In this document: piece by piece, positions 30,428-52,688 of the stretch
How the letters are laid out: each line of letters begins with the position of its first letter
How positions within the stretch are numbered: position 1 is the stretch's first letter
Origin: a virus
Reading direction: 5' to 3' (one strand)
Virus record (IMG/VR): IMGVR_UViG_3300047496_000382
DNA: 64,000 nt
Position numbers and translations under genes: made by a program
The notes under the pieces: generated by a model
Databases searched by the model: none
What the model was told of the DNA's origin: nothing
What the model saw: only the letters and a program-made list of their open reading frames with translations

Positions 30428-30919
30428 TCACGCGCCTTTGCGCAGCTCTGTACGTGCTTCGGTGATGGCCTGCCCGAGCAGGTTCTGGCCTAACCAAGTC
30501 GCTTTATTCCAAGCGCGCGGGTCGGCCAGCGAGAGACCGATACCCCAGATTTTGTCGTGTGGACTGGCCTCAACGAAGATGTCGGTGTCAGCTGTTGCCA
30601 GCAGAAACTCTCTGAGTTTCGGATTCTGCCTGTACTTCTCCATCGTCCCTGCGAGCACAATGGGGTAGCGCGTCTCTGCCCACTTCGCGTCGTCGTAGTT
30701 GCGGACCTTGCGGCCGAACTCCTTCTGCGCTCTTGGATACGGGGACGCCAGAATCTTCGCCCGCACTTCCTCGTCGCCGAACGTTCGGGCCTTCTCTGCC
30801 ATCATCCACTGCTCGACGCAGTTGTATTGCTGCCCGTTGAGGAGAAAGACCGAGGGCTCCCAGTTCGACGGCCAGCCGCCCCAGAAGAGTATGAATCCGT
30901 TTCGAGTCACGATGTCCAT
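30428..30919 (-). CDS. NADAR family (YbiA-like) N-glycosidase / ADP-ribose eraser
   Basis: SNW, CVEQWMMAEKA, KEFGRKV, EASPHDKIWGIG and GQNLLGQA motifs. Confidence 0.92.
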   Translation of the reverse strand: MDIVTRNGFILFWGGWPSNWEPSVFLLNGQQYNCVEQWMMAEKARTFGDEEVRAKILASPYPRAQKEFGRKVRNYDDAKWAETRYPIVLAGTMEKYRQNPKLREFLLATADTDIFVEASPHDKIWGIGLSLADPRAWNKATWLGQNLLGQAITEARTELRKGA

Positions 30920-30934
30920 GGTGTACCTCCATGG

Positions 30935-30964
30935 TTCTTGTGCCCGAACAGCGCTACTTCTTGA
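30935..30964 (-). promoter_or_regulatory. class I phage promoter for NADAR
   Basis: TCAAGA-N14-GGCACAAGAA; overlaps the ART stop codon. Confidence 0.65.
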
Positions 30965-31613
30965 CGCGCACAACCTCGACATTCACCGACGGTGCTGAGA
31001 TGAGGTACTCGCCCTCGGTGGGGCGGAAGGACTTGCCGATGACGTGTGCGTAGAGCTCGTTGAACCACGGCTTGGTACGCTCTGGCGGCGCGAGCACCGG
31101 AGTGACGCCCTCGCCATCGACGAGCTTGATGATGAGCCCGACCTTGCCATCACCGGCACCAGAGAAGCGGTTCGTCGCCGCCTCTGAGGTAGACCACGAA
31201 GAGAACCCATGATTGCGCGTGACCGGAAGAGCTAGGCGCTGTCCGACCTGGAGTTTGGCGAGTGGGTCGTCCTTCGGCACCTTGAAGCCGCGATAGATGC
31301 CCACAACATCCGAGGGCGCAAGGTCCATCACCTTGCTGAGAGAGTCGCGGTGCTCGAGGAGCTTGCGCGCCATCGTTTGGCCTGTGTACCAGCGCCGTGC
31401 ACTGTGCAGTGTCTCGAAGAGCTTCTCAGGTGTCGTCTCGCTCATGTGTGCGATGGCGGCATCACGGTGCGGACTCTCCCAGTTGTGTATCGAGGACACG
31501 AAGCTCTCGATGTGCGCCTTCGTTCGCGGCGGCATCCGGTCGTTGCTCTTGATTTTCACCGCAGCAATCTTCTCGAGCTCATCGAGGAAGGCGCCCCATC
31601 GTGTCCGGTCCAT
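30954..31613 (-). CDS. R-S-E clade ADP-ribosyltransferase with N-terminal AFLDELEKIA motif
   Basis: IYRG, FSSWSTS and TEGEYLI motifs in canonical order. Confidence 0.75.
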   Translation of the reverse strand: MDRTRWGAFLDELEKIAAVKIKSNDRMPPRTKAHIESFVSSIHNWESPHRDAAIAHMSETTPEKLFETLHSARRWYTGQTMARKLLEHRDSLSKVMDLAPSDVVGIYRGFKVPKDDPLAKLQVGQRLALPVTRNHGFSSWSTSEAATNRFSGAGDGKVGLIIKLVDGEGVTPVLAPPERTKPWFNELYAHVIGKSFRPTEGEYLISAPSVNVEVVRVKK

Positions 31614-35389: not shown

Positions 35390-35427
35390 AAAAAGAAACG
35401 GGGCCAAGCAGTACGCCTGGCCCCGTC
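35390..35427 (-). terminator. intrinsic terminator after tmRNA
   Basis: ACGGGGCCA...TGGCCCCGT stem plus TTCTTTTTG. Confidence 0.8.
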
Positions 35428-35448
35428 TACCTACTTCTTCTATTTTCG

Positions 35449-35841: not shown

Positions 35842-36033
35842 TCACTTCTTCTTGTCCAACTGTTTCATCAGTCGCATCTCGAGCTCGGCGAAGTCCACGC
35901 CCGTGACGACGAAGGGGTCCTTTCGTGTGAAGGCATCACGCAAGCGGCGCCCGAATTCGGTGCGCAGCGGGAGGTTCTGTAGCGCCGGCACATCGCTCAC
36001 GCGGCGGCCGGTCTCGGTCACTCGAGTGCTCAT
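35842..36033 (-). CDS. 63-aa mini-protein derived from family A DNA polymerase motifs 2 and A
   Basis: TETGRRVSDVPALQNLPLRTEFGRRLRDAF...VDFAELEMRL; ATG overlaps the sigma stop. Confidence 0.7.
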   Translation of the reverse strand: MSTRVTETGRRVSDVPALQNLPLRTEFGRRLRDAFTRKDPFVVTGVDFAELEMRLMKQLDKKK

Positions 36034-36821
36034 CAATCATCCTCCAGGTTCAGGCCCATGTGCTGCCGAAGAGTCGCACCCATCTGCGTCTTCAGCTTGC
36101 TCACCTGCGGCGCCGTCATGTTCATCTTCTTGGCGAGCTCGTTGGTCGAGGTGATGTGCGCGTAGCCGTTCGTGCCGAAAACGTGGTTGAAGAGTGTGTG
36201 GAGATGCGGCTGGTTCGGGAAGATGTCGGGCAGGATGTTCTGCGCGATGGCGATTTGCTGCTCCTCGAACTCGAGCGGGTGCTGCCGGCTGGTCGGGTCC
36301 GTCTCGAAGGCGCTCGAGGGAACGTCGCCGGAGCGCGCGGCCTGGATGCGGCCAACGAGCTTGGCCGAGAGTCCCATGTGCCCGCCAATCTCCTCGTGCG
36401 TCGGCTGACGACCCAAGTCCTGGCGCAGCGTGTCTTCTGCCTTGATGAGCTTGCCGATGTGTCCTGAGACACCCTCCGGCACGTAGCCGATGTTCTGGTG
36501 GCGGTTGTTGTACCGCATCGCCTTCTGCAGCCGTGTGTGCACGTGCGTATTGAGCGCCGCCCCTCGGTTCGGGTCGTACGTCTCGAACGCCTTGATGAGG
36601 TGCTTCTGGAGCTCCGCGCGCATCGAGGCCTCGGGCACGTTCGGCGCGCGGTACTGCGTCATCTTCTGCGCGATGACGGGCTTGTAGAGGTCGAGCAGCG
36701 GCGACAAGTCCTCGGGCTTCTTTGAGGTGCGCCACGTGTTGAGGAGCTCAATCTCGTGCTCCTTGCGATTCTTCTTCTGCGCCTCTTTGCCTTGGAGGTA
36801 CTCGTTGACGGGGTTCGACAC
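36033..36821 (-). CDS. phage sigma-70 family factor, FliA/WhiG-like
   Basis: Region 2 AFETYDPNRGAALNTH; region 3 LGRQPTHEEIG; region 4 HTH NELAKKMNMTAPQVSKL. Confidence 0.85.
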   Translation of the reverse strand: MSNPVNEYLQGKEAQKKNRKEHEIELLNTWRTSKKPEDLSPLLDLYKPVIAQKMTQYRAPNVPEASMRAELQKHLIKAFETYDPNRGAALNTHVHTRLQKAMRYNNRHQNIGYVPEGVSGHIGKLIKAEDTLRQDLGRQPTHEEIGGHMGLSAKLVGRIQAARSGDVPSSAFETDPTSRQHPLEFEEQQIAIAQNILPDIFPNQPHLHTLFNHVFGTNGYAHITSTNELAKKMNMTAPQVSKLKTQMGATLRQHMGLNLEDD

Positions 36822-38321: not shown

Positions 38322-38931
38322 GATAGGTGGCTCCCTTGGTGATGTGCGTGAGATTGATGAACAGCTCCATCGGCACCCCGCTGCCGACAGTCATTGCGTA
38401 CGCAGCCGCGGCCTCCCCGACAGCCAGACCCGATGTGCCGGGCCCGTACACGAGGATGAGACGCAACAGCACGCACACTTTGCCGAGCGTCTTCAGCGAT
38501 TGCTCGATAGCCACACCCTTGCGCTGGTTAGCAGAGAAGGGGTCGCGCTCTAACATCGCGAACTCCACCTGCTCCATCTGCTTGCGTCGTTCACTCTCCG
38601 CGAAGAGCTGGAGGAGGAAGTTGACGTGCCCGGCAGTCAGTACGCGGGGGCGAGCGAGTGGACTCCCAACGGTCACGGCGACGTGCTCGAAAATCAGAGC
38701 GACGCGACACGCGGAGTAGTCGGCGCCGCGCTGCTTCCCCTCTTCCCACAGTGCCTCGGCCTCAGAGTAGATGGTCGGCGGCGGGTCGGGGTCGTTCGGG
38801 TCTTCAAGACCAGAACGCGCAGAGCGCTGGAGGGCACGGTAGTAGCCCTCGTAGACAGGACATGTGTCGTCCAGAAGAACCTCCCGGAGGACAGAAACAT
38901 CCTCCAGGTCTCTTATACCCCTGCGCGTGAA
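38311..38931 (-). CDS. hypothetical protein, start codon unresolved
   Basis: Open frame extends 85 codons upstream of the track GTG with no ATG. Confidence 0.45.
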   Translation of the reverse strand, partial: FTRRGIRDLEDVSVLREVLLDDTCPVYEGYYRALQRSARSGLEDPNDPDPPPTIYSEAEALWEEGKQRGADYSACRVALIFEHVAVTVGSPLARPRVLTAGHVNFLLQLFAESERRKQMEQVEFAMLERDPFSANQRKGVAIEQSLKTLGKVCVLLRLILVYGPGTSGLAVGEAAAAYAMTVGSGVPMELFINLTHITKGATYHGR

Positions 38932-38939
38932 CTACTTGT
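38910..38939 (-). promoter_or_regulatory. class I phage promoter
   Basis: ACAAGT-N14-GGTATAAGAG. Confidence 0.55.
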
Positions 38940-40449
38940 TGCCGCCGGGGCTCGAAGCACCGAGGTCGACTGGCGTCGTCCCTCCAATGGAGCCCTTGAA
39001 GGCGCCGGCGATGCCGCTTCCGAATCCAGCGCCCTTTGGCTTTGCGATGTTGGCGATACTCGGACCTTGCGGAGTCGGAAGGCTCATGCCGGGCAGGCCG
39101 ACCTTCTTCGCAGCGCCCATGGCGGCCATCGGCGAGGTGCCGGCGCCCATCATCGCTGCGTTCTTCTCGAGGAGGTACGCAACGTACTCGCTGAGCTCTG
39201 ACGGTGACATCGCGTACTTCGACTTCTTGAAGTCGCTCGCGCTGAAGGTGACACCGTCGGGCAGCGCATCGGCCGACTTGTCCTTCGCACGCCCGCCGTC
39301 GATGTTCACGTCGGGGAGCAGCTCACTGCGCTTCTGGATGGCCTGGTCGAGGCGCGGCATCTGGAAGGATGGCAGGTCGCTCGCCATCATGAAGTTCCCG
39401 CGCGTGGGTGCACTCGCCGCGGTCTTCTTTGCCTCGAGCTCCGCGCGGAGTGCCGGCGCGTGCTTGAGCGCGATGTACCGCTCCAACATCCCCTTGCCGT
39501 AGCTGCCTGCCATCACACCGGCCGCAGACAGACCTGCGTGCTCTGCGAGTTCCGGCCCACCCAGGGCGTGCGTGATGAGCGGAGCGATGGCATCTCCGAT
39601 AATGTTCCTTCGTCCAAGAGCACCAGACGACCGTCCTGCGTCACGAAGAAGCTCTTCCTTCTCTTCCTCCGGTACGTCTTCGAGCCGAAGCATGTCGCTG
39701 CCGCGTAGCATCCCTTCGCCCATCAACGCGCCGAGCCCGAGACCCGCCAAGCCGCCGGCCACCGCGCCTCGGTTGCCGCCGCGAAGGTGGCCAAGGTTCA
39801 TGCCGCTGACCGCCATCGGCGCACCCATGCCGAGGTACGCGCCGAGACGTCCCTTCCAGCGCGAAGGCGCCTCGTTCGGGTCCGCCTTCGATTTTCCGAA
39901 GAGCATGTGTGCACCGAGACCGGCAGCAACAGCGCCTCCTCCGACGTTTGCGGGCGTTCGCAGAGAAGCAGGTGGCGGTCTGTTCTCCCACGCGGGGGTA
40001 GGGTTCCACGCCGCATTGCCCCCCGGCCGTGCCGCCGCAGAGCCTCGTGCCGCATCACTCGCACGGCGAGCACCGCGACCGAGGTTGTGACCTTCCGGAT
40101 ACTTCGCTTTCGCCACACTATTGAACTTCTTCTGCACTCCTTCGGGGATGGCAGCTTCGTTCATCATGCGCTGGAAGTCTGCGTGCGTGCCGCCTTTCGC
40201 GAGGTGCGGTCCACCGACCTGTTCCCACCACTGTCCGATGTTGGTGGTGGCGTACTTTGAGAGGAACTCCGCGCCATCGAAGTACTCGCGGAGGTCGGCG
40301 TACCAGACGGGCTCTTCAGCGGCGGTCTTCTGGAGAGGCGCCTCGAGACCTGGAATGCGCAAGGGCGGCAGCCGACTCGCACCGCTGGCGATGATGGGGT
40401 TCAACGGTGTCGAGTACTGACTCGTCGCGAACGACTGCTTCTCGGTCAT
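38932..40449 (-). CDS. putative internal head/ejection protein with glycine-zipper segments
   Basis: Repeated [LIA]xKx[AS] sites; GAVAGGLAGLGLGALMG. Confidence 0.5.
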   Translation of the reverse strand: MTEKQSFATSQYSTPLNPIIASGASRLPPLRIPGLEAPLQKTAAEEPVWYADLREYFDGAEFLSKYATTNIGQWWEQVGGPHLAKGGTHADFQRMMNEAAIPEGVQKKFNSVAKAKYPEGHNLGRGARRASDAARGSAAARPGGNAAWNPTPAWENRPPPASLRTPANVGGGAVAAGLGAHMLFGKSKADPNEAPSRWKGRLGAYLGMGAPMAVSGMNLGHLRGGNRGAVAGGLAGLGLGALMGEGMLRGSDMLRLEDVPEEEKEELLRDAGRSSGALGRRNIIGDAIAPLITHALGGPELAEHAGLSAAGVMAGSYGKGMLERYIALKHAPALRAELEAKKTAASAPTRGNFMMASDLPSFQMPRLDQAIQKRSELLPDVNIDGGRAKDKSADALPDGVTFSASDFKKSKYAMSPSELSEYVAYLLEKNAAMMGAGTSPMAAMGAAKKVGLPGMSLPTPQGPSIANIAKPKGAGFGSGIAGAFKGSIGGTTPVDLGASSPGGNK

Positions 40450-40456
40450 TTGAACC

Positions 40457-40858
40457 TCAACGCGGCAGCGCCGGTGCGGGGACAGTCGCCTTCTCGAGGA
40501 CCGCGCTGTTCACCGCCTTGGGTGCGGTGCGGAGGATGTGCTGCGCTGCCTCGTTCTCGGCGTCGTGTGCAGCGATGCCCGCGAGCGGCTTCAGCCCGGC
40601 GGTGAGACCCTTCGGCGCTGCGCGAACAGCACCGAGCAGCTTCTGGTAGCCACCGAGCGCGCCGGGCGGCGGGGGCATGAACGATGCCCCAATCTTCTCG
40701 AGCTCGTCGAGGAACGCCGCGAGGCGCACCTGTGCGGTCTTGTCGAAGCCGAACGAGCCGGCGAGGAGCTTTGCCATCTCCTCCATCCGTGTCGTACGTC
40801 CCGTGAGCTGCCCGTTGGTGTCGTAGTGCGCGGTGAACCCGGACCCCGTCTTGTCCAT
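40457..40858 (-). CDS. putative internal head protein (AAFLDELEKIG)
   Basis: Shared motif. Confidence 0.55.
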   Translation of the reverse strand: MDKTGSGFTAHYDTNGQLTGRTTRMEEMAKLLAGSFGFDKTAQVRLAAFLDELEKIGASFMPPPPGALGGYQKLLGAVRAAPKGLTAGLKPLAGIAAHDAENEAAQHILRTAPKAVNSAVLEKATVPAPALPR

Positions 40859-40866
40859 AGCGCCGC

Positions 40867-41874
40867 TCAGGCCGTCGCCCCGACGCCGACAGGAGGAGCT
40901 CCCCTGGCACGGAAGCGGTCGAGGAAGGAGCGTGCAGCGCCACCAGCCTGGCTGCCGAGAGCGCGCGCACCCTCAGCGGCACTCCCCGCCATGCCCTTGA
41001 GCGGGTTCATCTGCCCGACCTGCGCGCCGAGCGAGTGCATGGGCACGCCTTCGGGGCTCATGCCGCCGCGCGCGAACTGTCCGACGGCCTGACCTGCACG
41101 ACCGACAGCACCGCTGACGGCCTGTCCTGCCTGACCTGCCTGCCCCGCGAGGCTCGAGCCGAGACCGCGAAACGGGTTCATCTGCGCGAGCTGTTCGCCG
41201 ACGCCGTGCATCGGGATGCCCTCCGGGCTCATTCCACCGCGGAGCGCACCGGAGATGCGGCCTCCAACGGCGCGCGCGGCGTCACCCACGGCACCAACCG
41301 CCTTCTGTGCACCGCCGGCGACAGCCGCACCCGCTTGGCCTGCCTGCCCCGCGAGGCTCGAGCCGAGACCGCGAAACGGGTTCATCACGCTCAGACCGTG
41401 CATCGGAATGCCCTCGGCCGACATGCCCCCGCTGACGAGTCCCTTCGCTGCGCCCGCCGCGCGCCGGAAGAGGTCCATCGGACCGGCTTCCTTGGTGAGC
41501 AATGCCTCGACGGACGCGTGCCCCTCTGCTGCCGCAATCTTGCGGAGCTCGGCCTCAAAACCGTCGAAGAAGGCGCCCTTTTCGTCCGACCCGAACTTGC
41601 CGAGCGCCTTTGTCGCTGCAGCGCGGAGACCACCGAAGATGCCGGACTCTGCCGCCGGCGCTGCCTTCACCCCGAAGGACGCTGCGTTCGCCGCAGGACT
41701 GAAGCCCGCCTTGCGCGCGGCCGCAGCACCCGCTGCCGGAGCGGCCGTCCCACGCTGCGCGAGGCGCTGTGCCTCCGGCACGGCCAGGTCGTAGCTGAGC
41801 TTCATCAGCTCAATGAACGGTTGCTGAAACGGGCGGAGTGTCTCGGGCGTGAAGTCGAGCGCGAGGGCGTTCAT
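40867..41874 (-). CDS. putative internal head protein with three Gly/Ala repeats
   Basis: FEAELRKIA motif; three GGMSxEGxPMH..MNP repeats. Confidence 0.55.
   Translation of the reverse strand: MNALALDFTPETLRPFQQPFIELMKLSYDLAVPEAQRLAQRGTAAPAAGAAAARKAGFSPAANAASFGVKAAPAAESGIFGGLRAAATKALGKFGSDEKGAFFDGFEAELRKIAAAEGHASVEALLTKEAGPMDLFRRAAGAAKGLVSGGMSAEGIPMHGLSVMNPFRGLGSSLAGQAGQAGAAVAGGAQKAVGAVGDAARAVGGRISGALRGGMSPEGIPMHGVGEQLAQMNPFRGLGSSLAGQAGQAGQAVSGAVGRAGQAVGQFARGGMSPEGVPMHSLGAQVGQMNPLKGMAGSAAEGARALGSQAGGAARSFLDRFRARGAPPVGVGATA
41135..41386. repeat. exact 48-bp direct repeat (41135-41182 and 41339-41386)
   Basis: CCTGCCTGCCCCGCGAGGCTCGAGCCGAGACCGCGAAACGGGTTCATC twice. Confidence 0.9.
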
Positions 41875-41889
41875 GGTCTCTCCTTGGGA

Positions 41890-42264
41890 CTACTGTTCTA
41901 CACCAGCCGGGCCCACCGCCGAAGGCAGAGGAAGAGGCTTGTTCTTTTCGGCGTACTGGTCAGCGAGCGCACGCACCACTGGGATGGCGCCGCCGGCGAG
42001 GCCACCCTTGACGGCGTCACCCGCGACATTGCGAATCTGCTGGAGTGCGGTGCCACCACCGAATATCGGGCGTCCGGCGACGACGTTGCCGATGGTGGTG
42101 ATGGCAGGTCCTGCGACCGCGCCGACAGCACCGTAGCGCGCGAGCTGGTTGGTCAGCAGCTCCCGCTTCGCCGCGTCGAGCTTCTGCTTCACGGCGTCCG
42201 CGTGCCGCTCCGTAGCAGCACCGAGCTTCACCAGCTCATCGAGAAAGGCCGCGGTGTCCATCAC
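41890..42264 (-). CDS. putative internal head protein (AAFLDELVKLG) with glycine zippers
   Basis: Shared motif; GAVGAVAG. Confidence 0.55.
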   Translation of the reverse strand: MMDTAAFLDELVKLGAATERHADAVKQKLDAAKRELLTNQLARYGAVGAVAGPAITTIGNVVAGRPIFGGGTALQQIRNVAGDAVKGGLAGGAIPVVRALADQYAEKNKPLPLPSAVGPAGVEQ

Positions 42265-42719
42265 GTCTTCCGCTTCTTCAGTGCGTGCTCGACGCCGAGC
42301 TGTGCAAGAGAACCGACGCCGTAGCCGAGGCCCGAGCTGGCGAGCTCGCTGGCTCCAAGGGCGTGCCCGACTCCGGCCCCGGCGAGGGCGCCCAGCGCCG
42401 GGCCAACTTCGTGACTGGCGCCTTCGAGGAAACGACGAGCAAAGCTCGGTGCCTCGCCCGCAAGCGCTTCTTTCTTCTGCATCCCTGGGTACTTCTTCGC
42501 GACCGCTGCGCGCACGCGCGATTGCTCCTCCGACGAGCCGTGCATCTTAGAGAAGCCCAACGCGCTCTCGGCGTGCTGCTTGTCCTCGATGGGGTACTTG
42601 CGCTCTTCCGGGATGGCGAAGTTCTTCTCCTTGATGTGCGCGCGGGCAGACGACGTGAGGTCCGCGGCAATCTTGGTGAGCTCGTCTTCGAAGGCGGCTT
42701 GAAGCGTGTGAAGGTCCAT
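42261..42719 (-). CDS. putative head protein (AAFEDELTKIA) with DUF6582-like domain
   Basis: FAIPEERKYPIEDKQHAESAL motif. Confidence 0.6.
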   Translation of the reverse strand: MDLHTLQAAFEDELTKIAADLTSSARAHIKEKNFAIPEERKYPIEDKQHAESALGFSKMHGSSEEQSRVRAAVAKKYPGMQKKEALAGEAPSFARRFLEGASHEVGPALGALAGAGVGHALGASELASSGLGYGVGSLAQLGVEHALKKRKT

Positions 42720-42726
42720 AACGTCC

Positions 42727-43233
42727 TCAAGTATGTTCCGATGGGGAGTTGAACGCGCCGATACCGGTCGACTGCTGCGCAAGTCCGGTGATGGTCGTGG
42801 CATTGTTGCGTTGGTCGTAGCTGTCGACGACGTTGATGTTCTCCTGGCTGGGAACATCACCCTTCTTCTTCGGCTTGATGGCCTCCTGGTACGCGAACGG
42901 GCTCTCGCCCAGCGTCATCGGGTGCGTCTCGCCACGAACCACCTCACCAATCTTCGACTGGTCGGGGTAGTTGGTCTCCTTCGAAGGGACCTCGCCGGGT
43001 CGCTTTGGAATGCGGGCAGCACCCGGGTCGTCAGTGCCAGCGCTCGCCACGGGCTCCGCGCGCCCTGCAGCATCCGCCTTCTTATAGAGCGTGCCGTCCT
43101 TGTCCTTCTTCAGGAGCGTGTGAACGCTCATCGGACGGCGGCCCTCGCGCGTCTTCGGCACGTGCATACGCCCGTGCGCGGCGGAAATCTTCTCGAGCTC
43201 ATCGAGAAACGCAGCGTAGACGGGCGAAGGCAT
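42727..43233 (-). CDS. putative internal head protein (AAFLDELEKIS)
   Basis: Shared motif. Confidence 0.55.
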   Translation of the reverse strand: MPSPVYAAFLDELEKISAAHGRMHVPKTREGRRPMSVHTLLKKDKDGTLYKKADAAGRAEPVASAGTDDPGAARIPKRPGEVPSKETNYPDQSKIGEVVRGETHPMTLGESPFAYQEAIKPKKKGDVPSQENINVVDSYDQRNNATTITGLAQQSTGIGAFNSPSEHT

Positions 43234-43261: not shown

Positions 43262-44068
43262 TTACGAAGCCTGTAGGCGCGGCAGACGCGGCCCTCCGCG
43301 GACGTCGTGCGCAGTAGCTGTCATGGCCTTCTCCAGCGGCCAGAACGCAAGTCGATAGCGCAGAACACCGAAAGGAACACGCAGCCTGCGTGCCCACTCC
43401 GCGAGGGGCAATGTCTCGCCTGCGTACGACACAAGACGCCGGCTGGCTGGTGTCAGAAGTGCTTGCTCCAGCGGCCATCCTTTCTCCAGACGAGAACTCA
43501 ACGTTTCGGCATCCAATCCCGCGCAGCGCGCCCACTCGGCAAGACACTGCGTCGTTCCGGCGTATGAGAGCATAACGTTGTTACGTTTGTTCCGCGCCTG
43601 CTCCTCCTTCGTTGCCCAGCGCACGTTGCCGGGCTCGTAGTCCTTATCGTTGTCGCGGCGGTCGAGAGAGTGTTTCCCAGAAGGACGCCGCCCCACTTCC
43701 GCAAAGAACAACTCGAAGGTGCCCGCTCCTACCCATGAAGGATGCACACCGATTCCGCGTCCGCCGTAGTCTGCGTACATCTTGTTCTTCTTATTGTAGC
43801 AGCGGTCGTACATCTGCTTCCACGCGCGATACTCCGCGGTGCGCGACATGCCGTGCCGCGTGAAGAGTTTCTTTGCACGCGTGCCTACGCCCGCCCGCTG
43901 CAGACAACCACAAGAGGTAGTGTCACCCGCCTTCAACGACGCGGGGCGCACCGTGCACTCTGTGCCGCAGACGCACAAACAAACACAACGCACGGGACGT
44001 CGTTCCATGCGCTGAACGACCAGGTTCACGAAACGACGACCTGTTAGGTCTTCAAATCGCGGCGTCAC
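43262..44068 (-). CDS. HNH homing endonuclease (YGGRGI type)
   Basis: SCGCL, YGGRGI, SLDRRDNDKDYEPGNVRWAT; two C-terminal HTH repeats. Confidence 0.9.
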   Translation of the reverse strand: MTPRFEDLTGRRFVNLVVQRMERRPVRCVCLCVCGTECTVRPASLKAGDTTSCGCLQRAGVGTRAKKLFTRHGMSRTAEYRAWKQMYDRCYNKKNKMYADYGGRGIGVHPSWVGAGTFELFFAEVGRRPSGKHSLDRRDNDKDYEPGNVRWATKEEQARNKRNNVMLSYAGTTQCLAEWARCAGLDAETLSSRLEKGWPLEQALLTPASRRLVSYAGETLPLAEWARRLRVPFGVLRYRLAFWPLEKAMTATAHDVRGGPRLPRLQAS

Positions 44069-47000
44069 TACCCCAAGATGGCCCTCGCGTACTGGATAGC
44101 AGCCACGTAGGCCTTCACCGCGTCCTGCTTCCGTTTACGGGTATCGCCACGAGCGGCAATAGCAGACCCGCGAACGATGCCAACGATATTTTCGATGTCA
44201 GGCGTTGTCAACCCAAAGAGGTCCTCGTAGGGGCCGAAGGCGCGCGAGTGGAAGCCCTCGATGCCGTTGATGACCTGGTGCCCCTGGTCATCCAGTGTCA
44301 GGTCGCGTGTGCCGAAGAGGTCGGTGAGCGTGGCGATGGGGCGCCAGGTGTAGCCCCGGATGTACTCGTCGACGTCGAGACCGCGAGCTCGCGTGGCAGA
44401 GTAGGTCTGGACGATGAAGGACACCGCGTCGGCGATGGTGGCGTTCTTGTCGAGCGCGAGGAGCGCCGGCGCATTCGTCAGCGGGTCGTCCGCGTCCGTG
44501 GCGCTTGCCGCCGTCGCCAGCGCTTGCTGCGCATCTTCGTACGACACCCCGAAAGAGCCGCCGGATGTGTCACTCACCTGCTGCTGGTCGGTGATGGCGC
44601 CCGTGTTGAAGAACTGGGTGTAGGCCTGCCCGATGAGAAGTGGGTGCCAGATATCACCGTACCAACCAGGGCGAATGTACTCTTCGGCGGGCAGGTCAAC
44701 GGTGTCTTTCCGGTAGCGTGGCACAGACTCGGTGACGCGGAACGCGCGGAAGGTAACGAGCGCCGTTGGGTCACCGATGAAGGTTGCGACGTCGGCACCA
44801 AAATCAGAAGCCTTCGCCGTGATGCCGACGGGGACGCTGATGCTTGGAGTGCGCGTGCCAGACCGCGAGGGCCCAGCAAGCACGGGAAACTTGCGACCAC
44901 TGGCAATGTCCTTGGCCGCATTGGCGGCTGTGACGTCTTCAACCGCAATGATAGGTCCAAGGTTCGGTCCAAGAGAGTTGATGGCTGGCGCGTCGACAGC
45001 CGCAATGACAGTGGCGCGTGCAGCATCGGTCGGAAACCGTCGATGCACCGTCTGGTCTGGGCGCAGTACGCCGAGGAACTCCACCGACTCGTTGTGCTGC
45101 CTAGCGTACGAGCAGTTGTAGTCCGTTGTGCCTTGTTGCTGGTCGACGGTGTGCGTGACTTCCGTAAAGTTCGCGAGGAAGTGGACACCGAGCAGGTCGT
45201 TGATGTCAGAGGTCGTGCCTCCCTGCTGTGCGATGAGCGTCTGCATCGCGCTGACACTTGCAGGGTCGATGTACTTGTCGATGACCAGGCCAGGGAAACC
45301 AACAGCCACCCAAGGATTGAACTTCCCCTTCACTTGCATCTGCCGGGCAGCAAAGCGGTACTTGAAATAGAGGAAATTTGTCGAGCGCTGCGCCAAGCCG
45401 ACTTTCGCTAGAGAGCCGTCCGACGACCCCGAACGTGCGGCGAAGATGTTGAGCTCTCCCATCTTCTCGAAGACGGGCAGGATGCCGGTGAAGAGCTCAT
45501 GCTGGAGAAGGTCATTCGAAAGGATGTTCTGCAGCTCCTTGCCGCCGGTCTTGAGCGTGAAGCCCTTTGGCGCGAAGTAGAACTGGTCAAAGAGCTCGTC
45601 CTCGCCGAAGAACTCGTCGTTCGTCTTGAGTAGCAGGCGCGTGGGTTCCGCGAGGAACTGCTGCGCAAAGGACATCGAGTGGTAGAGCTCGGGGAAGAGC
45701 ACGTTGCAACGCGGCGGCGCGCTGAACCACACATCCGGTCGGAAGATTTGTTGATTCAACCGCGCAGGCATCACACTCGCCGGCTGCTGTACCGTCTCCA
45801 TCGCAGTGACGCGCATCAACTCAGCTTGCGCCTGCGTGAGATAGGTCGATGTGGCACTGACTACAGTGGGTGTGGCGCCTGGTCGCCACGTCGCGACCTT
45901 CGCCTGCGCCTGTCCGAGGAGACGCAGCGCAGAGGTGTAGAAGGCACGCGCCTGACGCACACTCGGGTCGGTGATTTGGTTCACCACGCTACGAATCAAG
46001 GACTGCATCCCTGACAAGTCCGACACCATCGACGCCGGCTGTGGCGCCCCCGAAGTGCTTGCGGAGTTCGCGGAGAGAGTGTCGAGCAATCCGCTGATGC
46101 CGAGTACGAGGTCTTGCGCAGCTGACGCAATGTAGCTGAAGCGCGTGTCTTGACTGAGCGGCACGCGCGTCACGCCAGCAGGAGTGTCGCCTGAACCCGG
46201 CGCGTACATCGGACACGGCTGGGCGTAGGTCTCGTGGAAAATAATGCCCATCAACGCATTGATGGCCTGCCGAATCGACACCTGCTGCCCGAGGTCTCCA
46301 AGTGTACGTCCGAGCAAGCTGTCGTAGCCCGCAGACAGGAGGCGTGACGCCGTCGGGTCATCCTCATACGCCGTAATCAGCTGGGTGACGTGCAGGCGCA
46401 ACTCAGCGAGTGAAAAGAAGATGTTCTCGCCCGCAAAGGCCTTGCCGCTGTAGTAGCTCCCGCCGATGGCTTCCAGCAGGTGCGCGATGCCACCAAGCAG
46501 CCCCTTGAGCTTCGGGAACTGTACACTTGGTGTCTGGATGATGCGGATGATGGCCGAGCCTTCGTCCTCGAGGAAATCGGTGAAGAGGTTCGTTGAGCCG
46601 CCGGAGAAGAGCGCCTTCACCCCCGGCCCGAAGAGGTCAGTGTTGTTCCACTGGTAGGCGTAGTCCCAGTAGTTGCTCCAATCCATGCATTGCAGGACGA
46701 GCGACCGCTGGCTCTCGTTCTTCGTCCACTGCTGCCCAACGACCTCGCCTCCGAAGAGGAGCTTGTAGCGCCCGTCCTCGAGGTCCTTTGCGTTGACCGT
46801 GATTTGCGTCGGGTCGATGGACGGAGGGGTAGGACCACCAGGCCCATCGGATTCGATAGTGATGGTGCTGATGGTATTGCGCTCTGTGTCTGTCGGCTGT
46901 CGGTCTTTTCGCACGTCACGTGCACCCGACGTCGTCGAGAACGGACCCGCTGCTTGGTACATGTCGTAGAAAAACAGGTGCACCAGTGTGCGCGGCAGGA

Positions 47001-47145
47001 ACTTGAGTCCTGTCGGCAAAGGTGGAATCTGAATTGAGCACGCCGCCGGCGCATTCGGGGTGACTTGCACCGATGCAGAGATGACAGGAACCTCCACGCC
47101 CTCGAGAAAGAGCCGGAGCTTGAGGCGATGTCCGATGCCTGCCAT
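44068..47145 (-). CDS. baseplate hub-like tail protein
   Basis: RLFLEGVEVPVISASVQ start; position two genes downstream of the tape measure. Confidence 0.6.
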   Translation of the reverse strand: MAGIGHRLKLRLFLEGVEVPVISASVQVTPNAPAACSIQIPPLPTGLKFLPRTLVHLFFYDMYQAAGPFSTTSGARDVRKDRQPTDTERNTISTITIESDGPGGPTPPSIDPTQITVNAKDLEDGRYKLLFGGEVVGQQWTKNESQRSLVLQCMDWSNYWDYAYQWNNTDLFGPGVKALFSGGSTNLFTDFLEDEGSAIIRIIQTPSVQFPKLKGLLGGIAHLLEAIGGSYYSGKAFAGENIFFSLAELRLHVTQLITAYEDDPTASRLLSAGYDSLLGRTLGDLGQQVSIRQAINALMGIIFHETYAQPCPMYAPGSGDTPAGVTRVPLSQDTRFSYIASAAQDLVLGISGLLDTLSANSASTSGAPQPASMVSDLSGMQSLIRSVVNQITDPSVRQARAFYTSALRLLGQAQAKVATWRPGATPTVVSATSTYLTQAQAELMRVTAMETVQQPASVMPARLNQQIFRPDVWFSAPPRCNVLFPELYHSMSFAQQFLAEPTRLLLKTNDEFFGEDELFDQFYFAPKGFTLKTGGKELQNILSNDLLQHELFTGILPVFEKMGELNIFAARSGSSDGSLAKVGLAQRSTNFLYFKYRFAARQMQVKGKFNPWVAVGFPGLVIDKYIDPASVSAMQTLIAQQGGTTSDINDLLGVHFLANFTEVTHTVDQQQGTTDYNCSYARQHNESVEFLGVLRPDQTVHRRFPTDAARATVIAAVDAPAINSLGPNLGPIIAVEDVTAANAAKDIASGRKFPVLAGPSRSGTRTPSISVPVGITAKASDFGADVATFIGDPTALVTFRAFRVTESVPRYRKDTVDLPAEEYIRPGWYGDIWHPLLIGQAYTQFFNTGAITDQQQVSDTSGGSFGVSYEDAQQALATAASATDADDPLTNAPALLALDKNATIADAVSFIVQTYSATRARGLDVDEYIRGYTWRPIATLTDLFGTRDLTLDDQGHQVINGIEGFHSRAFGPYEDLFGLTTPDIENIVGIVRGSAIAARGDTRKRKQDAVKAYVAAIQYARAILG

Positions 47146-47148
47146 GGG

Positions 47149-48768
47149 TCAGACGTAATAGCCGGTTGTGTTCACCGGCGAGTAGGAACCGTCGGGTCCG
47201 GTGTTGTACGGCAGTCCGCCGCCGCCACCAGGGAGAAGCGTTCCAGAAACCAGCGCCATCGCAAACGCACTGGAAGTCCCGCCCACAGGCACGCTCGCGG
47301 CGTTTGATGTGCCGATGAAGGCACCGATACCCTGACTGGTCTGCACAGAGGAGTACTTCCCTCGCGTGCCGCCGCCCACCCCCGTCCCGGAGCTGAGACC
47401 AGGAGAAGCTCCAGCAGCACTGGGACTGAAGCTCGTTGCACTCGACAGCATCCGCAACGTCCCCGCATAGGTCGACGTTGACGTGACATTGCTGCCGTTG
47501 CTGAAGATGCCGCTGAGTCCGAATCCGCCGTTGATGCCGTTCGTCGTCGACCCATAGCTCGATGGGCCGAAGGTCGCGCTTGAGTAATTGCTGCCGCTGT
47601 TGAGCGGCTGTCCGACGGGGCTCTTGAACGATGGTCCGAGGCCGAGAGAGTTGAGCGTGCTCGGATTGTTGATGTCGGCGCCCTTGTCCTGTGCTTGCGT
47701 GATGGCGCTGTCGGAGAGGTCCTCGACCTCGTCCATCCCGGCGCGGTCCTCCTCCGACTGTGAAGGGTCTGCCGACGTCGTCGGGGCAGCGGGACCAGTG
47801 AACTCGTCAACGTTATCGGAAATCTTGCTACGCAGAGGCGTCGACCGCGTCAGGCCACCTGGCATGGCGCCGCTGGCCTGGAATGCTGCGAGCACGGCGT
47901 CGGCGAGGTTGCCGGGGATGTTCTGTTGCAGCGTCGCACCGGTCATCGCGGCGCGCTCGAGAGCGCTGGCGCCACCGAACTGGTCGACCAGCTGCTGTTG
48001 CCCACCTGCCTGGATGAGCTGCATCTGGGCGTCCGACAGCGCGGGCCCGTTCGTCTCTTGGATGCCAACATCTGCGGCCGCAACCGTGAAGGCATCTCCC
48101 GCGGTGAGCGTCACGTCCGCGGGCAAATTCACGCCTGCGCGGATAGGGTAGTTCGGGTCCGCCGCCGTCGCGTTGTCGCTGATGAAAGTGATGTTGGAGT
48201 AGTTGGTGAGGAAGAGACGGAAGCTGAGCTGCACCATCAAGGGCAGCTCACTCGTCTTCACACACTGCGCCTGCAGCATGTACCCCTCGACGATGTTGTC
48301 ATCGTAGAAGAGGTAGCAGCGCGCGCCCATCTCCACGAGCTTGGTGCCGCGCAAGTAGCGGTCGTAGTTCTCCCAGAACTCCGCGTACCAGTTGAAGTCG
48401 AACGAGTCGACGAGGACGGCAGTCACGTCGAGGAAGCGGGGCTGCTCGCCAAAGAAGTAGATGTACGGTTCACCGAACGTCTGGACGATTTGGTGCTTCT
48501 CCATCCGCGCTTCCTGCACGGACTGGAGGATGAAGTTGGTGTACTGCGTGGTACCGCCGTCGACGGAGCCCGAGTCGATGAGTCGAATCTCTTCGCCCGA
48601 CGCTTTGACGACCTTCAAAATCGCATAAGTATCGTCCTTGATTTCTAGGCCGCGAAGCGGACGTCGCGCACGACTGGCTCCCGCACGGCGACTCTTCGCC
48701 GTGTCTTGGAGCTTCGCAACAAACGTGTCGGCGAAGCCATCGGTGGTCAATTCAACGAAAACTGCCAA
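47149..48768 (-). CDS. tail tube initiator/baseplate-like protein
   Basis: NFILQSVQEARMEKHQIVQTFG..YFFGEQPRF motif; synteny. Confidence 0.6.
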   Translation of the reverse strand: MAVFVELTTDGFADTFVAKLQDTAKSRRAGASRARRPLRGLEIKDDTYAILKVVKASGEEIRLIDSGSVDGGTTQYTNFILQSVQEARMEKHQIVQTFGEPYIYFFGEQPRFLDVTAVLVDSFDFNWYAEFWENYDRYLRGTKLVEMGARCYLFYDDNIVEGYMLQAQCVKTSELPLMVQLSFRLFLTNYSNITFISDNATAADPNYPIRAGVNLPADVTLTAGDAFTVAAADVGIQETNGPALSDAQMQLIQAGGQQQLVDQFGGASALERAAMTGATLQQNIPGNLADAVLAAFQASGAMPGGLTRSTPLRSKISDNVDEFTGPAAPTTSADPSQSEEDRAGMDEVEDLSDSAITQAQDKGADINNPSTLNSLGLGPSFKSPVGQPLNSGSNYSSATFGPSSYGSTTNGINGGFGLSGIFSNGSNVTSTSTYAGTLRMLSSATSFSPSAAGASPGLSSGTGVGGGTRGKYSSVQTSQGIGAFIGTSNAASVPVGGTSSAFAMALVSGTLLPGGGGGLPYNTGPDGSYSPVNTTGYYV

Positions 48769-49043: not shown

Positions 49044-52000
49044 CTACTTGCCCTCTGGGTTCTTGAACCCATTTTTCTCGATTGTCGTGAGCATGCTGTT
49101 AGTACCCTTGCCGATAGCCACCAAGTCCTCGAGGAACTTCGCCGACTTCTCGGCAGCCTTCAGCTGTGCCGCCGCCAACGGGTCGTTCGCTTCCTGTTCG
49201 CCCTGCTTCTTAGCCGTCTGTTTATCCTTGAATTCCTTCGAGCTGGTGACGTCCGAGATGATGCTTGCGGTCTTGCGCCCCTCAGACATACCTTTCTGAA
49301 CAGCCGCGAGGGTCTCCTTATCGCCGACACCGCTCATCGCCAGGAGTTTCTGCATGCCCTCATAGCTGTTGACGTCGATGTTCTTGAGCTGGTCCTTCGA
49401 CAGATTGAGACCGAGCGCCTCTGCCGCAGCCCCCGTCTTGCCCTTCCTGCGAGAAGATTTATCGAAGCGGTCCTCGACGCTGGCAGAGTAGCCAGCCTTA
49501 GCACCAGCTTCCGTACCTGCGAGCGCGTTCGCAACCGCACGCTTCTGTGAGACCGTCATCTTGTCGAGCAGGCGCTCTTGCTCAACGGCCTCGCCTTGCA
49601 TCTTCTCGAGGATGCCGGCGTCGACTTCTGCCGTGGCGGTCGTGCCACCGAGGTTCGACTTCATCACGGAGGCTCGCAACGCGTAAGACGCAAAGCGCGC
49701 AGCGTCTTTCCCTCCAGCGGTCTCGAGGGACTTCCGCGCATCAGCTGTGAGCGTGTTGGCCTTCGCGTCGTAGATGCCAAGGTTGGTTGCGGTATCGAGC
49801 TCCTTCTTGCCCTCACCGCGCTGACGACGGGAAATCTCACTGACGTTTTTCTCCCAGTCAGTGCGCACCGTCTGCATCGACCGCGTGGCCATCGACGCGA
49901 GCTCGTCCGGTTTGAAGGTACGCCCTGGCGATGAGAGACTGGCAGCGAACTTCTCCTTGTCCTCTGCCGAGGCGTTTGGATTCTTGTCCAACCACTCGGA
50001 GTAGCTCGAAGCTGCCATGAGGCGCTGCTTGACCTGACTCTCGGGGTTGTTCTTGTCTTCATCGCTGAGACCTGCGAGCTCCTTGGAGATATCCGCGCGC
50101 GCCTGTGCCGCAACGTCCTTGTCTCCGCCGAAGGTGCGTAGCGCGAGGTCGCGAAACTTGTCCGACTTGAGGAACTCACCCGCTGCCTGCTCCGCAGCGG
50201 CACCACCACCAGACACCGAGTCGGCGAACGAGCCCACTGCCTTGGTAGCAAAGCCGAGTGTGAGGAGGTTGCCGACACCACCGACCGCAACCGCGGTAGC
50301 CTTTTCCCCGAAGCTGCGCTGGTCCCCAAGTACGGAGCGGGCAAGAGCCGTGTTCTCCTCACGCGCGGAGCGGAAGCCACGGGAGCTGGAGGTGAGCAGG
50401 TCACTCGGGATGCCGTAGTTCGAAGCGAGAGACCCCGCACCGCCGATGCCCTGCGCGCGCTCGGCGCTTGCCATGTAGCTCGCCTTCTCCGCGAGCGTCA
50501 TCTTGCTGAACTTGTCGCCGGCCGCCTGGTCATGCTTCGCGAGTGCCTGGCCGAAGCTCGCGATGCGGTCATCGCCCTGCCCCGCGACGTGACCCATCGC
50601 GTACGCCTCGCTGAGCCACTTCCCCTTCTCGCCGCCGTACTCCGTGAGCACGCTCTTGTCGTAGCCGCCAGACGCGACACGACGAACCTGGTCGATGTCG
50701 GCGAACTTCGAACGAATCTGGTCGCTCGACATCCCGTTGATGTCGAAGCCCGCCTTGCGCAACTTGCTCTGCCCAGACTCACCGTGAAGGAGAAAGCGCA
50801 TCATCTCGCCGGAGCCCGCCATCGCGCCGAGAACACCGCCACCTGCAGCGCCAAAGAGACCACCGCCGAGCGCACCGCCCGCAGCACCGGCCATCGCGCC
50901 CTCGCCCATGTTCGTCAGGCCCTGGCTCATGCTGCCGCCTGCACGCAGCTGCGCCGCGAGGTCCTGGTCGCCCATCTTGCCGGGAAGCGCCAGACCCTTG
51001 CCGCCGAAGCCCTTCATGCCGACGCCGAACGCGTCACGTCCAGCCTTCGCACTGAGCACACCACCGCCCATCATCTGCTGGAACTTGTCGTCGATGTCCT
51101 TCGAGTACGTCTCTGTGTAGTGGTCGAGGAGACCGTTGAAGAACTCGTCGATGCTCTGCGACCCAGCATTGAACACGTCCTGCCCGACCTTCTGGAGCTT
51201 GCTGTTGATGTGCTCCTTGGCTTGGTCGAAGCGCTGCTTCACACCTTCGAGACCGTGACTCTTCCGAGCCATCGACTGCTTCTGGAAGTACTGGTCACGC
51301 GACGCGTCACGCCGCTGCTGTTCCAGAATCTCTGGCATCGCGCTCGCCATCTTGATGGCAGAGTCAACCTCGTCTCGTCCCATCCCGAGCTGTCGCTGCG
51401 CGAAGAGCATCGAGCGGTCGTCCATGTTGTTGATGTCGACGCCCTTCGACTCCGCCCATTCCTTGAGCTGGAGTGCGGGGAGGAAGCCGCCAAAGCGCTC
51501 CATCGCTGCACCGCGCAGACGGCCCTCGTTCCGGATGAAGTTCGCACGACCCACCTTCGCGAGGTGCGACTGGTCGTTCTTCATCGTCTCGCTGATGCTC
51601 ATCCCACCGGTGAGAATCTGCTGGACTGCTCCTTCATCCAAACTTCCATCCTTGCCTGCGACAGAAGCAAGTAGGCGCCGACCGCGCCCGCTTTGAAGGA
51701 AGCCAGCAGTGTGTTGCATCGAAGAAGCGGCATAGGCCTGCCTCCCTTCCGCACCGGTGAGCCCGGTGGTGTTGTAGATGTCCTCCTCCGAAAGAAGACC
51801 CATCTGTTGTGCCGTTCCAATCTGGCCGATGGTGCGCATGCCGGCCATCGCGCCTTGCCGTCCGAGACCGCCCATCGAGCGTGAAATCTGAGAACCAATG
51901 CTCGCGGCACCGGTGACTTCGCTGAGCGCGAGACCGCCGGACACCGAGGTGTTGCGCGCCATCGAGGCGAAGCCCATCGCACCGCGCGCACCGAAGACAC

Positions 52001-52688
52001 CCGACGACTTCGCGGCGTTGGTCAGCTCAAGCGCGCCCTCGAGCGTGGTGTTCAGTTCAGTCGCCATCGTCTTGAGCGCGGTGACTGTTTCTTTGAAGCG
52101 CTTGCTGAACTCCTTCACGTCGCGAACGCCTTGCATCATCCCCATCTGTCCCATCTTCGTGGACAGACCCGCGAGCTCCTTGAAGGAGGCCATCTCCCCG
52201 CCGGGACCGACCTGCTCGCTCATCTCGCGCATGAGCCCGCCGATGGCGCTCATTTCGTTGTGCTGGAACCCCTGCCCACCATGCTGGTTCCGGAACGCGA
52301 AGGTCTGCCGCAGCTGTTGGTTGAGACCCTGCTGCTGCTGAGCACCGCTCATCATCTGGTTGCCGGCGTACCCGAGCGCAGCACCACCCGCCATCAACGG
52401 AAGAGCGACAGCTGCCCCGGCACCCAGCGCGCCGCCGACGCCTGCGCCGCTACCGAACGCGGACATGCCTGCCTTCAGACCCATCGACATCGGGTCGAGG
52501 CCCATCATCCCCATCGCGCCCGAAGCCAGCGGACCGCCGACCGAGCTCGCGAAGTTCATCCCGCGGCCCATGGCAGCGTCGCCGGCGTAGCCAGACTGGC
52601 CAATCATGCCGGAGTACTGCTGTTGCTGCATCGCCTGCTGGGCGAACGCACCATTCATACTAGCAATTTCGCTAGAGCTTATAGGCAC
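49044..52688 (-). CDS. tail tape measure protein
   Basis: 1214 aa, helical, G/A/M/Q-rich with glycine-zipper tracts; upstream of baseplate genes; SD GGAGG and GTG. Confidence 0.75.
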   Translation of the reverse strand: MPISSSEIASMNGAFAQQAMQQQQYSGMIGQSGYAGDAAMGRGMNFASSVGGPLASGAMGMMGLDPMSMGLKAGMSAFGSGAGVGGALGAGAAVALPLMAGGAALGYAGNQMMSGAQQQQGLNQQLRQTFAFRNQHGGQGFQHNEMSAIGGLMREMSEQVGPGGEMASFKELAGLSTKMGQMGMMQGVRDVKEFSKRFKETVTALKTMATELNTTLEGALELTNAAKSSGVFGARGAMGFASMARNTSVSGGLALSEVTGAASIGSQISRSMGGLGRQGAMAGMRTIGQIGTAQQMGLLSEEDIYNTTGLTGAEGRQAYAASSMQHTAGFLQSGRGRRLLASVAGKDGSLDEGAVQQILTGGMSISETMKNDQSHLAKVGRANFIRNEGRLRGAAMERFGGFLPALQLKEWAESKGVDINNMDDRSMLFAQRQLGMGRDEVDSAIKMASAMPEILEQQRRDASRDQYFQKQSMARKSHGLEGVKQRFDQAKEHINSKLQKVGQDVFNAGSQSIDEFFNGLLDHYTETYSKDIDDKFQQMMGGGVLSAKAGRDAFGVGMKGFGGKGLALPGKMGDQDLAAQLRAGGSMSQGLTNMGEGAMAGAAGGALGGGLFGAAGGGVLGAMAGSGEMMRFLLHGESGQSKLRKAGFDINGMSSDQIRSKFADIDQVRRVASGGYDKSVLTEYGGEKGKWLSEAYAMGHVAGQGDDRIASFGQALAKHDQAAGDKFSKMTLAEKASYMASAERAQGIGGAGSLASNYGIPSDLLTSSSRGFRSAREENTALARSVLGDQRSFGEKATAVAVGGVGNLLTLGFATKAVGSFADSVSGGGAAAEQAAGEFLKSDKFRDLALRTFGGDKDVAAQARADISKELAGLSDEDKNNPESQVKQRLMAASSYSEWLDKNPNASAEDKEKFAASLSSPGRTFKPDELASMATRSMQTVRTDWEKNVSEISRRQRGEGKKELDTATNLGIYDAKANTLTADARKSLETAGGKDAARFASYALRASVMKSNLGGTTATAEVDAGILEKMQGEAVEQERLLDKMTVSQKRAVANALAGTEAGAKAGYSASVEDRFDKSSRRKGKTGAAAEALGLNLSKDQLKNIDVNSYEGMQKLLAMSGVGDKETLAAVQKGMSEGRKTASIISDVTSSKEFKDKQTAKKQGEQEANDPLAAAQLKAAEKSAKFLEDLVAIGKGTNSMLTTIEKNGFKNPEGK

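Follow-up and report, generated by a model that had tools for sequence, protein, structure and literature searches.

The 64,000-nucleotide (64-kb) stretch of viral DNA analysed here, IMG/VR record IMGVR_UViG_3300047496_000382 and referred to below as the window, has a guanine-plus-cytosine (GC) content of 62% and carries almost every gene between position 1 and ~53,000 on the minus strand. Six of its proteins share a short segment of the form AFxDELxKI[AGS], called the tag in what follows. Five of the copies lie in consecutive genes at 40457-43233 and the sixth lies near the N-terminus of an ADP-ribosyltransferase (ART) at 30954-31613. The tagged genes, with protein lengths in amino acids (aa), are:

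42727..43233, minus strand: 168-aa tagged protein; tag at 43183-43215, with its F at residue 9
42261..42719, minus strand: 152-aa tagged protein; tag at 42666-42698; its body has a match to phrog_16160 and a weak one to DUF6582
41890..42264, minus strand: 124-aa tagged protein, Gly/Ala-rich; tag at 42220-42252
40867..41874, minus strand: 335-aa tagged protein; tag internal, at about residue 104, 41533-41565
40457..40858, minus strand: 133-aa tagged protein; tag at 40688-40720, about residue 47 from the first ATG and about residue 23 from an internal ATG
30954..31613, minus strand: ADP-ribosyltransferase of the R-S-ExE type, 219 aa; tag at residues 7-19, 31563-31595

All six instances reported in an earlier note on this DNA are found in the genes it named, on the minus strand and in reading frames supported by GC content at third codon positions (GC3). 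The pattern F.[DA]EL.K[IL][AGS] has 6 matches in the six-frame translation of the window, all of them in the GC3-supported coding frame, compared with 0.0007 expected from amino-acid composition and 0 in 200 shuffles. The copies differ in codon choice (TTC or TTT, GAC or GAT, six Leu codons, and ATT, ATC or ATA), and these synonymous differences indicate conservation at the level of the protein rather than a DNA repeat. An RNA- or DNA-level element is ruled out by this variation together with the existence of internal and repeated protein-level copies. The description of the proteins as unrelated outside the motif also holds, as masking the tag leaves the six without any mutual match at E<1e-4. 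Pfam and PHROG scans of the six tagged proteins and their large neighbours give almost no matches, no Pfam model covers the tag region, a literature search with the motif letters found no paper, and GenBank phages contain no DNA or protein match to the tag cluster or to the 1025-aa protein encoded upstream of it. The N-terminal ~45 residues of the 168-aa protein (the tag followed by HG.M.[IV]PK..GRRPMSV) are found again in relatives, where this head is joined to an InPase domain (L007:13493-14509). The body of the 335-aa protein is Gly/Ala/Met-rich and contains three ~45-aa repeats (GMS.EG[IV]PMH ... MNP[FL][RK]G[LM][GA]S ... AGQAG), for which no relatives were recognised.

The 71 tags compared come from genomes that range from 42 to 70% GC; all of them have the E and the K, the F, D, L and I each occur in 90% or more, and synonymous variation is free. 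A hydrophobic residue usually stands 4-5 positions upstream of the tag F, as in V-M-Q-A-A-F and I-I-H-Q-A-F, which implies a helix of about 14-18 residues with a stripe of F, L and I. The tag helix is acidic on account of its conserved D and E, and a role as membrane anchor is therefore unlikely. Masking of the tag separates the 106 non-identical tagged open reading frames (ORFs) into 71 clusters. An ATG is present no more than 25 residues upstream of the tag in 83 of these 106 ORFs, with a modal distance of 5-9 residues and most tags 5-12 residues past the start codon, and the tag lies within 30 residues of the N-terminus in 86 of the 104 hits from an exhaustive database search. As in the capsid-targeting sequence (CTS) of phage T4, a short peptide is thus found at the extreme N-terminus of proteins with unrelated bodies, with a minority of the tags internal or repeated. 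Internal tags occur in the 335-aa window protein and in LigD-like proteins (at residue ~490 of 664 and ~572 of 792), and 30 of the 104 top-scoring database hits contain between two and five tags. The proteins P0116, P0117, P0121 and P0122 carry multiple tags, and P0122 is built of four ~58-aa repeats with a tag at the start of each.

The exhaustive search, in which a hidden Markov model (HMM) of the tag was run against 1.84 billion representative proteins, returned the 104 clusters at E<=0.001 and supersedes a word-indexed protein search with the tag profile that gave 16 hits (E-value scaling). A degenerate DNA pattern of the tag matched at least 120 viral contigs, and about 55 of 80 loci among the matches listed carry a clean tag. 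Short tag-bearing contigs are 10-27% complete by CheckV, which implies genomes of ~180 kb and hence one lineage across the range of 42-70% GC. The 1025-aa protein has 13 relatives in IMG/VR, with 44-64% identity and on contigs of up to 195 kb. Between one and five tagged genes follow directly behind its gene in 11 of the 12 relatives with downstream DNA, the exception being the most divergent. This relative, L009 (44% identity in the 1025-aa protein), has only diverged tag variants, on the orthologous first gene, and the tag seems to drift along with the lineage. At L009:6332-7467, the orthologue of the 168-aa family opens with the diverged tag MKEELLEITKAAA and the next gene opens with IAEALLKIAS. 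Each of the four complete relatives has 3-5 strong tag hits per ~190 kb. Among cultured phages, Salmonella phage Arash and the Vibrio phages D69, D181 and D148 come closest in terminase and capsid protein, at ~28% identity.

The ART provides a case in which the presence of the tag varies within a single protein family. Its assignment, made in the earlier note, is confirmed by an AlphaFold2 (AF2) model with a predicted local distance difference test (pLDDT) score of 90, by structural hits that are almost all ARTs and by the invariant R / S-S-W / E-x-E residues. The Vis ART toxin accounts for the top three Foldseek hits (probability 0.94-0.98), and the VIA top 50 are nearly all ARTs, with a best Z of 5.4 and a root-mean-square deviation of 3.6 over 125 residues; there is no Pfam hit. 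In an alignment of 82 sequences, R108, S138, S139, W140, E200 and E202 show no or almost no variation. The tag forms a low-confidence helix in the AF2 model (pLDDT <50) that is unpacked against the confident body (pLDDT 90). The family comprises 98 homologues with 53-72% identity, of which ~40 carry the tag before a conserved KIKSNDRMP start and ~45 (200-204 aa) open directly at KIKSNDRMP, with a few having diverged helices instead. The linker between the tag and the ART body consists of 2-6 variable residues, and this variability gives no hint of a conserved cleavage site after the tag. A NADAR gene (30428-30982) lies directly downstream of the ART gene and overlaps its end at 30954-30982, and the ART homologue P0113 (363 aa) is a fusion with NADAR. 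From this arrangement the NADAR protein is likely an antidote or partner of the ART that removes ADP-ribose.

Small proteins that are rich in Gly and Ala or contain glycine zippers, without an enzymatic domain, make up the majority of the tagged set. The Pfam domains found on tagged proteins include InPase PF18823 (8 proteins in two scans), SNF2 helicase, LigD-like phosphoesterase-ligase, Peptidase_C92, GNAT, histidine phosphatase, DnaJ (one protein), DUF6321, DUF5661 and glycine zippers. Some of the proteins combine several domains: that at L011:12699-14276 consists of the tag, DUF5661, C92 and InPase, and the 1556-aa P0117 is a polyvalent protein with KTSC, InPase and GNAT domains and five tags between them, so that a tag precedes most of the domains. 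InPase was first described as a domain of phage polyvalent proteins for which packaging and injection were considered likely, and the paradigms for such effectors are T4 Alt (an ART), P1 DarB (a helicase-methylase) and the MuF fusions (PMC5512222). InPase, SNF2, ART, peptidase and acetyltransferase domains are all present among the virion genes of the tag-bearing phages, and with this domain set the tagged proteins amount to an unfused version of the polyvalent effector repertoire. The Pfam families listed for the 166 tagged proteins (62 + 104; at most 25 families per table) include none of MuF or portal type, and the short tag stands in place of the covalent MuF or portal fusion as the packaging handle.

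The operon that contains the tag cluster is of virion type. The neighbours of the tagged genes are:

49044..52688, minus strand: 1214-aa Gly/Met-rich protein, first gene of the unit; syntenic with Arash gp4
47149..48768, minus strand: 539-aa protein; homologue of Arash virion protein gp6
44068..47145, minus strand: 1025-aa protein; homologue of Arash virion protein gp8
38932..40449, minus strand: 505-aa low-complexity protein without a tag, last gene of the unit
36033..36821, minus strand: phage sigma factor; homologue of Arash gp10; one border of the interval in which the tag cluster lies
30428..30982, minus strand: NADAR-domain protein (PF08719, E 1e-43)

Arash has the gene order gp4-gp5-gp6-gp7-gp8-gp9-gp10, the last being its sigma factor. 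The 539-aa protein matches gp6 (E 2e-10), the profile of the 1025-aa protein matches gp8 (E 5e-9) and the window sigma factor matches gp10 (E 2e-22), while for the 1214-aa protein no sequence match to gp4 was found. The tag cluster thereby occupies the position of gp9, between the gp8 and sigma homologues. Mass spectrometry of Arash virions detects gp4, which is abundant, as well as gp6, gp7, gp8, gp10 and both RNA polymerase subunits (PMC10585845). The expectation that the tagged genes would lie next to head genes is inexact, as the cluster stands beside homologues of Arash gp4, gp6, gp8 and the sigma factor and not beside capsid genes. A tagged SNF2 helicase of the lineage (L122) aligns over its full length with Arash gp217 (E 4e-47), a protein represented by 38 unique peptides and 1148 spectra in virions and among the most abundant in the particle (PMC10585845). 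In the ESM Atlas the 1025-aa protein is nearest to GpP/Gp44-like baseplate-hub clusters with a score of 0.93, which serves as a lead only; neither PF21683 in five relatives nor a PDB profile search confirmed a baseplate-hub identity, and a search for a sheath family found none. The gap from the 1025-aa gene to the first of the tagged genes holds a 268-aa Cys-rich ORF of lower GC3 (43262-44068, minus strand) without a Pfam match; it looks like an insertion, since the tagged gene starts within ~100 nt of the 1025-aa gene in relatives.

A further connection is provided by the head module, which in the complete relatives encodes terminase, proteins of 441 aa, 200 aa, 574 aa, 255-289 aa, ~470 aa, 117 aa and 174 aa, and the major head protein. 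The 255-289-aa protein is acidic and Lys/Glu-rich, and its most conserved block, GRIMAH[SA][FYL]V.E[LM].K[ILV], is kept even in homologues of 23-26% identity. This block closely resembles the tag, including the upstream hydrophobic pair. A position-specific scoring matrix (PSSM) built from tags only gives the GRIMAH helix 14-26 bits, more than any other non-tag position in each of the four complete genomes, and ranks it third or fourth among 200-290 thousand positions. The tag can be read as imitating or deriving from an interaction helix of this scaffold-like protein. The syntenic Arash and D69 proteins have three ~30-aa repeats with [DE]LEK[AVS]AAV...F.EA.ELVKEAS, which may be an older form of the tag motif:

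OQ632216.1 148209-148976: Arash scaffold-like protein gp223
L205:6633-7442: D69 scaffold-like protein VPHD69_0271

Weak tag-like helices of 11-16 bits, near noise, are also seen at orthologous positions in several genomes in the 441-aa (L193:2327-3652) and 117-aa (L193:8305-8658) head proteins, with the forms [EG]F[VI]D[TA]LNKLA and VADEL.K[QS]A. A PDB profile search with the 441-aa protein gave no match.

Taken together, the tag exists, is modular and under protein-level selection, marks effector-type cargo and is found in virion-gene operons. The reading that fits these observations best is that the tag is a virion-loading address through which cargo docks on a component of head assembly while the procapsid forms, to be ejected at infection, and a probability of roughly one half is assigned to it. 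According to this model, ~180-kb myovirus-like phages would place the tag before, and occasionally inside or behind, many unrelated proteins, and one common partner would recruit all of them. The partner would most likely be a head-assembly component, with the tag mimicking the core helix of the scaffold-like head protein, so that tagged proteins would co-assemble into the procapsid and later be ejected into the host together with the DNA. The earlier note had proposed an address tag on diverse cargo. The address is well supported by the comparative data, namely modularity, N-terminal position, gain and loss on the ART family, effector domains, the virion-gene operon and the resemblance to the scaffold-like protein, while binding to a head component, encapsidation and ejection are what we infer from them.

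Several observations weigh against loading into the head. The tag-bearing phages are known from sequence alone and none is cultured, and the tag was not found in the cultured relatives Arash and D69; a search for another shared N-terminal tag in Arash gave only paralogue families. Arash gp217 starts without a tag, so Arash packages its SNF2 homologue by some other route, and no Arash homologues of the tagged InPase and LigD proteins were detected. The Arash mass spectrometry lists 116 'virion' proteins, some of which may be contaminants. The window sigma factor, presumably packaged, has no tag, and the four complete relatives have no other tag of at least 12 bits, the polymerase genes not having been individually located; the tag is consequently not a universal packaging route. 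The genes flanking the cluster could encode tail or ejection-apparatus parts rather than head-internal proteins. The resemblance between the scaffold-like protein and the tag amounts to only 14-19 bits in two of the four genomes, near the noise of 12-16 bits, and the 255-289-aa protein, which has no family or structure match, is called scaffold-like by gene order and composition only. Its 574-aa neighbour, a candidate prohead protease, has no Pfam, PHROG or PDB hit and an AF2 model with a pLDDT of 39.

Alternatively, the tag could dock cargo on the particle outside the capsid, in the tail lumen, at the baseplate hub or on an ejection complex formed by the 1214-, 539- and 1025-aa proteins, and delivery would take place from the tail, in a manner likened to effector loading in contractile injection systems or to marker motifs of the type VI secretion system. 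The position of tagged genes directly behind the 1025-aa gene in 11 relatives and the ESM Atlas lead for its product agree with such docking, as do the myovirus nature of Arash, the annotation of its gp8 homologue as a cell-wall hydrolase, and the Gly-rich composition of many tagged proteins, which resemble tape-measure or pore-former proteins. It is nevertheless distinctly unlikely: the hub model PF21683 finds nothing in the five relatives, the PAAR, tail and baseplate genes of Arash are in a different module past the capsid gene, the tag-like helix is on the scaffold-like head protein and not on a tail protein, and SNF2 helicases of 720-783 aa would be large cargo for a tube lumen. Somewhat more weight, within what is still an unlikely range, is given to a generic interaction peptide with a partner outside the virion, such as a host chaperone or protease, the phage RNA polymerase or sigma factor, or an intracellular compartment, by which tagged proteins would be co-localised or co-regulated inside the infected cell. 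The SNF2, LigD-like, InPase and ART proteins could cooperate on the DNA of phage or host, a DnaJ domain is present on one tagged protein, the packaging of the untagged SNF2 homologue by Arash fits, and the internal and repeated copies would not be tolerable for a signal that needs a free terminus. The abundance of small Gly/Ala-rich or glycine-zipper proteins without enzymatic domains is difficult to reconcile with this explanation, as is the virion-type operon context. Moreover, the restriction of the tags to one phage lineage, with which they diverge, points to a phage-encoded and not a universal host partner, and the net acidic charge argues against membrane binding.

Processing by the prohead protease is compatible with a virion-loading address, and the motif could be the recognition or cleavage site itself, with multi-tag proteins as polyproteins and N-terminal tags as propeptides. 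Such a protease removes the T4 CTS and the propeptides of phiKZ and SPN3US (PMC3012670, PMC10052503), a tag precedes each domain of the polyvalent P0117, and the conserved acidic D-E pair could supply a P1 Glu. The would-be P3 position, however, is the variable x, and no conserved residue or site was found past the tag. The cleavage signal and the shorter [LFIA]xKx[AS] core put forward in the earlier note also receive no support from the counts. K.[AS] occurs 23 times against 21 expected, so that a KxA 'code' is rejected, and several of the 15 occurrences of the five-residue [LFIA]xKx[AS] (6.3 expected) are the tags themselves; the untagged 505-aa protein alone has a modest excess (7 vs 1.9, p ~0.003 before correction). 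A pure cleavage site would also not need a conserved amphipathic helix of 14-18 residues, and the lineage's candidate protease (574 aa) is the protein without a database match. Removal of the tag by a prohead protease, also by a cut inside the tag, is possible, without sequence support, and the motif as primarily a cleavage site is improbable. A remnant of common ancestry, left by duplication of one small gene and devoid of shared function, would explain why five of the six tagged genes are tandem neighbours; the lack of similarity outside the tag, its presence on enzymes of unrelated folds, its gain or loss on the ART family and the invariance of its residues while the shared proteins of these phages diverged to 44-64% identity make this by far the least credible of the explanations.

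Among known systems, the C-terminal helix-turn-helix of the P22 scaffolding protein, the C-terminal tail of the HK97 protease and encapsulin cargo-loading peptides dock to the inner shell. Like them, the tag is a short helix that resembles one in an assembly protein, here the core helix of the scaffold-like protein; unlike the tag, they are C-terminal, serve one or few cargo proteins each and have different sequences. The T4 CTS ends in an L/I-x-E prohead-protease site. It is a short N-terminal peptide on IPI-III and Alt that directs these proteins into the prohead scaffolding core, from which they are ejected with the DNA (PMC3012670, PMC5512222). The tag is likewise a short N-terminal peptide on diverse proteins including an ADP-ribosyltransferase, but it is longer, may be internal, C-terminal or present in 2-5 copies, and has no evident cleavage site; no sequence relationship between the two is established, and the cargo of the tag is far wider (at least 71 families) and known from genes alone. 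In phiKZ and SPN3US, ~200-kb myoviruses with a virion RNA polymerase, N-terminal regions of internal or ejected head proteins have been proposed as prohead-targeting (PMC10052503). These regions similarly occur on many such proteins, but they comprise 20-254 residues with an A-X-E cleavage site and no shared motif, whereas the tag is a shared motif in which no cleavage site is evident. The polyvalent, MuF- and portal-fused effectors (Iyer, Burroughs, Anand, de Souza and Aravind 2017; P1 DarB) have in common with the tagged proteins the InPase, SNF2, ART, papain-like peptidase and GNAT domains and the virion-gene surroundings, and the tagged set itself includes polyvalent proteins, both small and large. 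They differ in that the tagged domains are mostly separate proteins with their own short tag rather than MuF or portal fusions.

Some features of the region concern transcription. The promoter word GGNATAAG, 11-fold over-represented in the window, is missing from both tag-bearing transcription units and occurs 11 times outside them, which counts in favour of the virion-loading address. At 38883-38919 on the minus strand, 13 nt past the stop of the 505-aa gene, the promoter-type word GGTATAAG is followed directly by an 11-bp hairpin and a T-rich run, and this element is the boundary between the virion-type unit and the sigma-gene unit. The strongest terminator-like hairpin of the region, with 15 pairs (9 G-C) followed by a T run, is found at 35396-35428 on the minus strand, between a gene for a 64-aa Pol I fragment and a 132-aa gene.

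The concept of a capsid-targeting peptide is already known from T4 (PMC3012670) and from the giant-phage propeptides (PMC10052503); new are the tag sequence, its lineage, the breadth of its cargo, its multi-copy forms and its ties to the scaffold helix and to the polyvalent effector repertoire. A more far-reaching and tentative proposal, favoured a little less than the virion-loading address itself, is that the tag constitutes a plug-and-play address code, in which the helix would have been copied from the phage's own scaffold protein and any gene that gains it would become virion cargo. If so, the tagged genes would form a readable catalogue of injected effectors, comprising the ART with its NADAR antidote, SNF2, the LigD-like ligase, InPase, an amidase and dozens of small unknowns, and the tag would be a ready handle for loading foreign proteins into capsids. 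With a NADAR antidote, the phage would be able to produce an injected ART safely, and the pairing is a hint of a nucleic acid as target. If it is a packaging address, the tag would also be an alternative to fused polyvalent proteins, with the same effector domains each bearing its own short tag, and after the T4 CTS it would be no more than the second capsid-targeting peptide to be well defined. Even with a partner outside the head, a peptide conserved across more than 100 protein families marks an undescribed recognition system. As a packaging address, it would allow the proteins injected by a large group of uncultured phages to be listed from sequence; for the majority of these no function is known, and anti-defence and host-takeover factors are probably among them.

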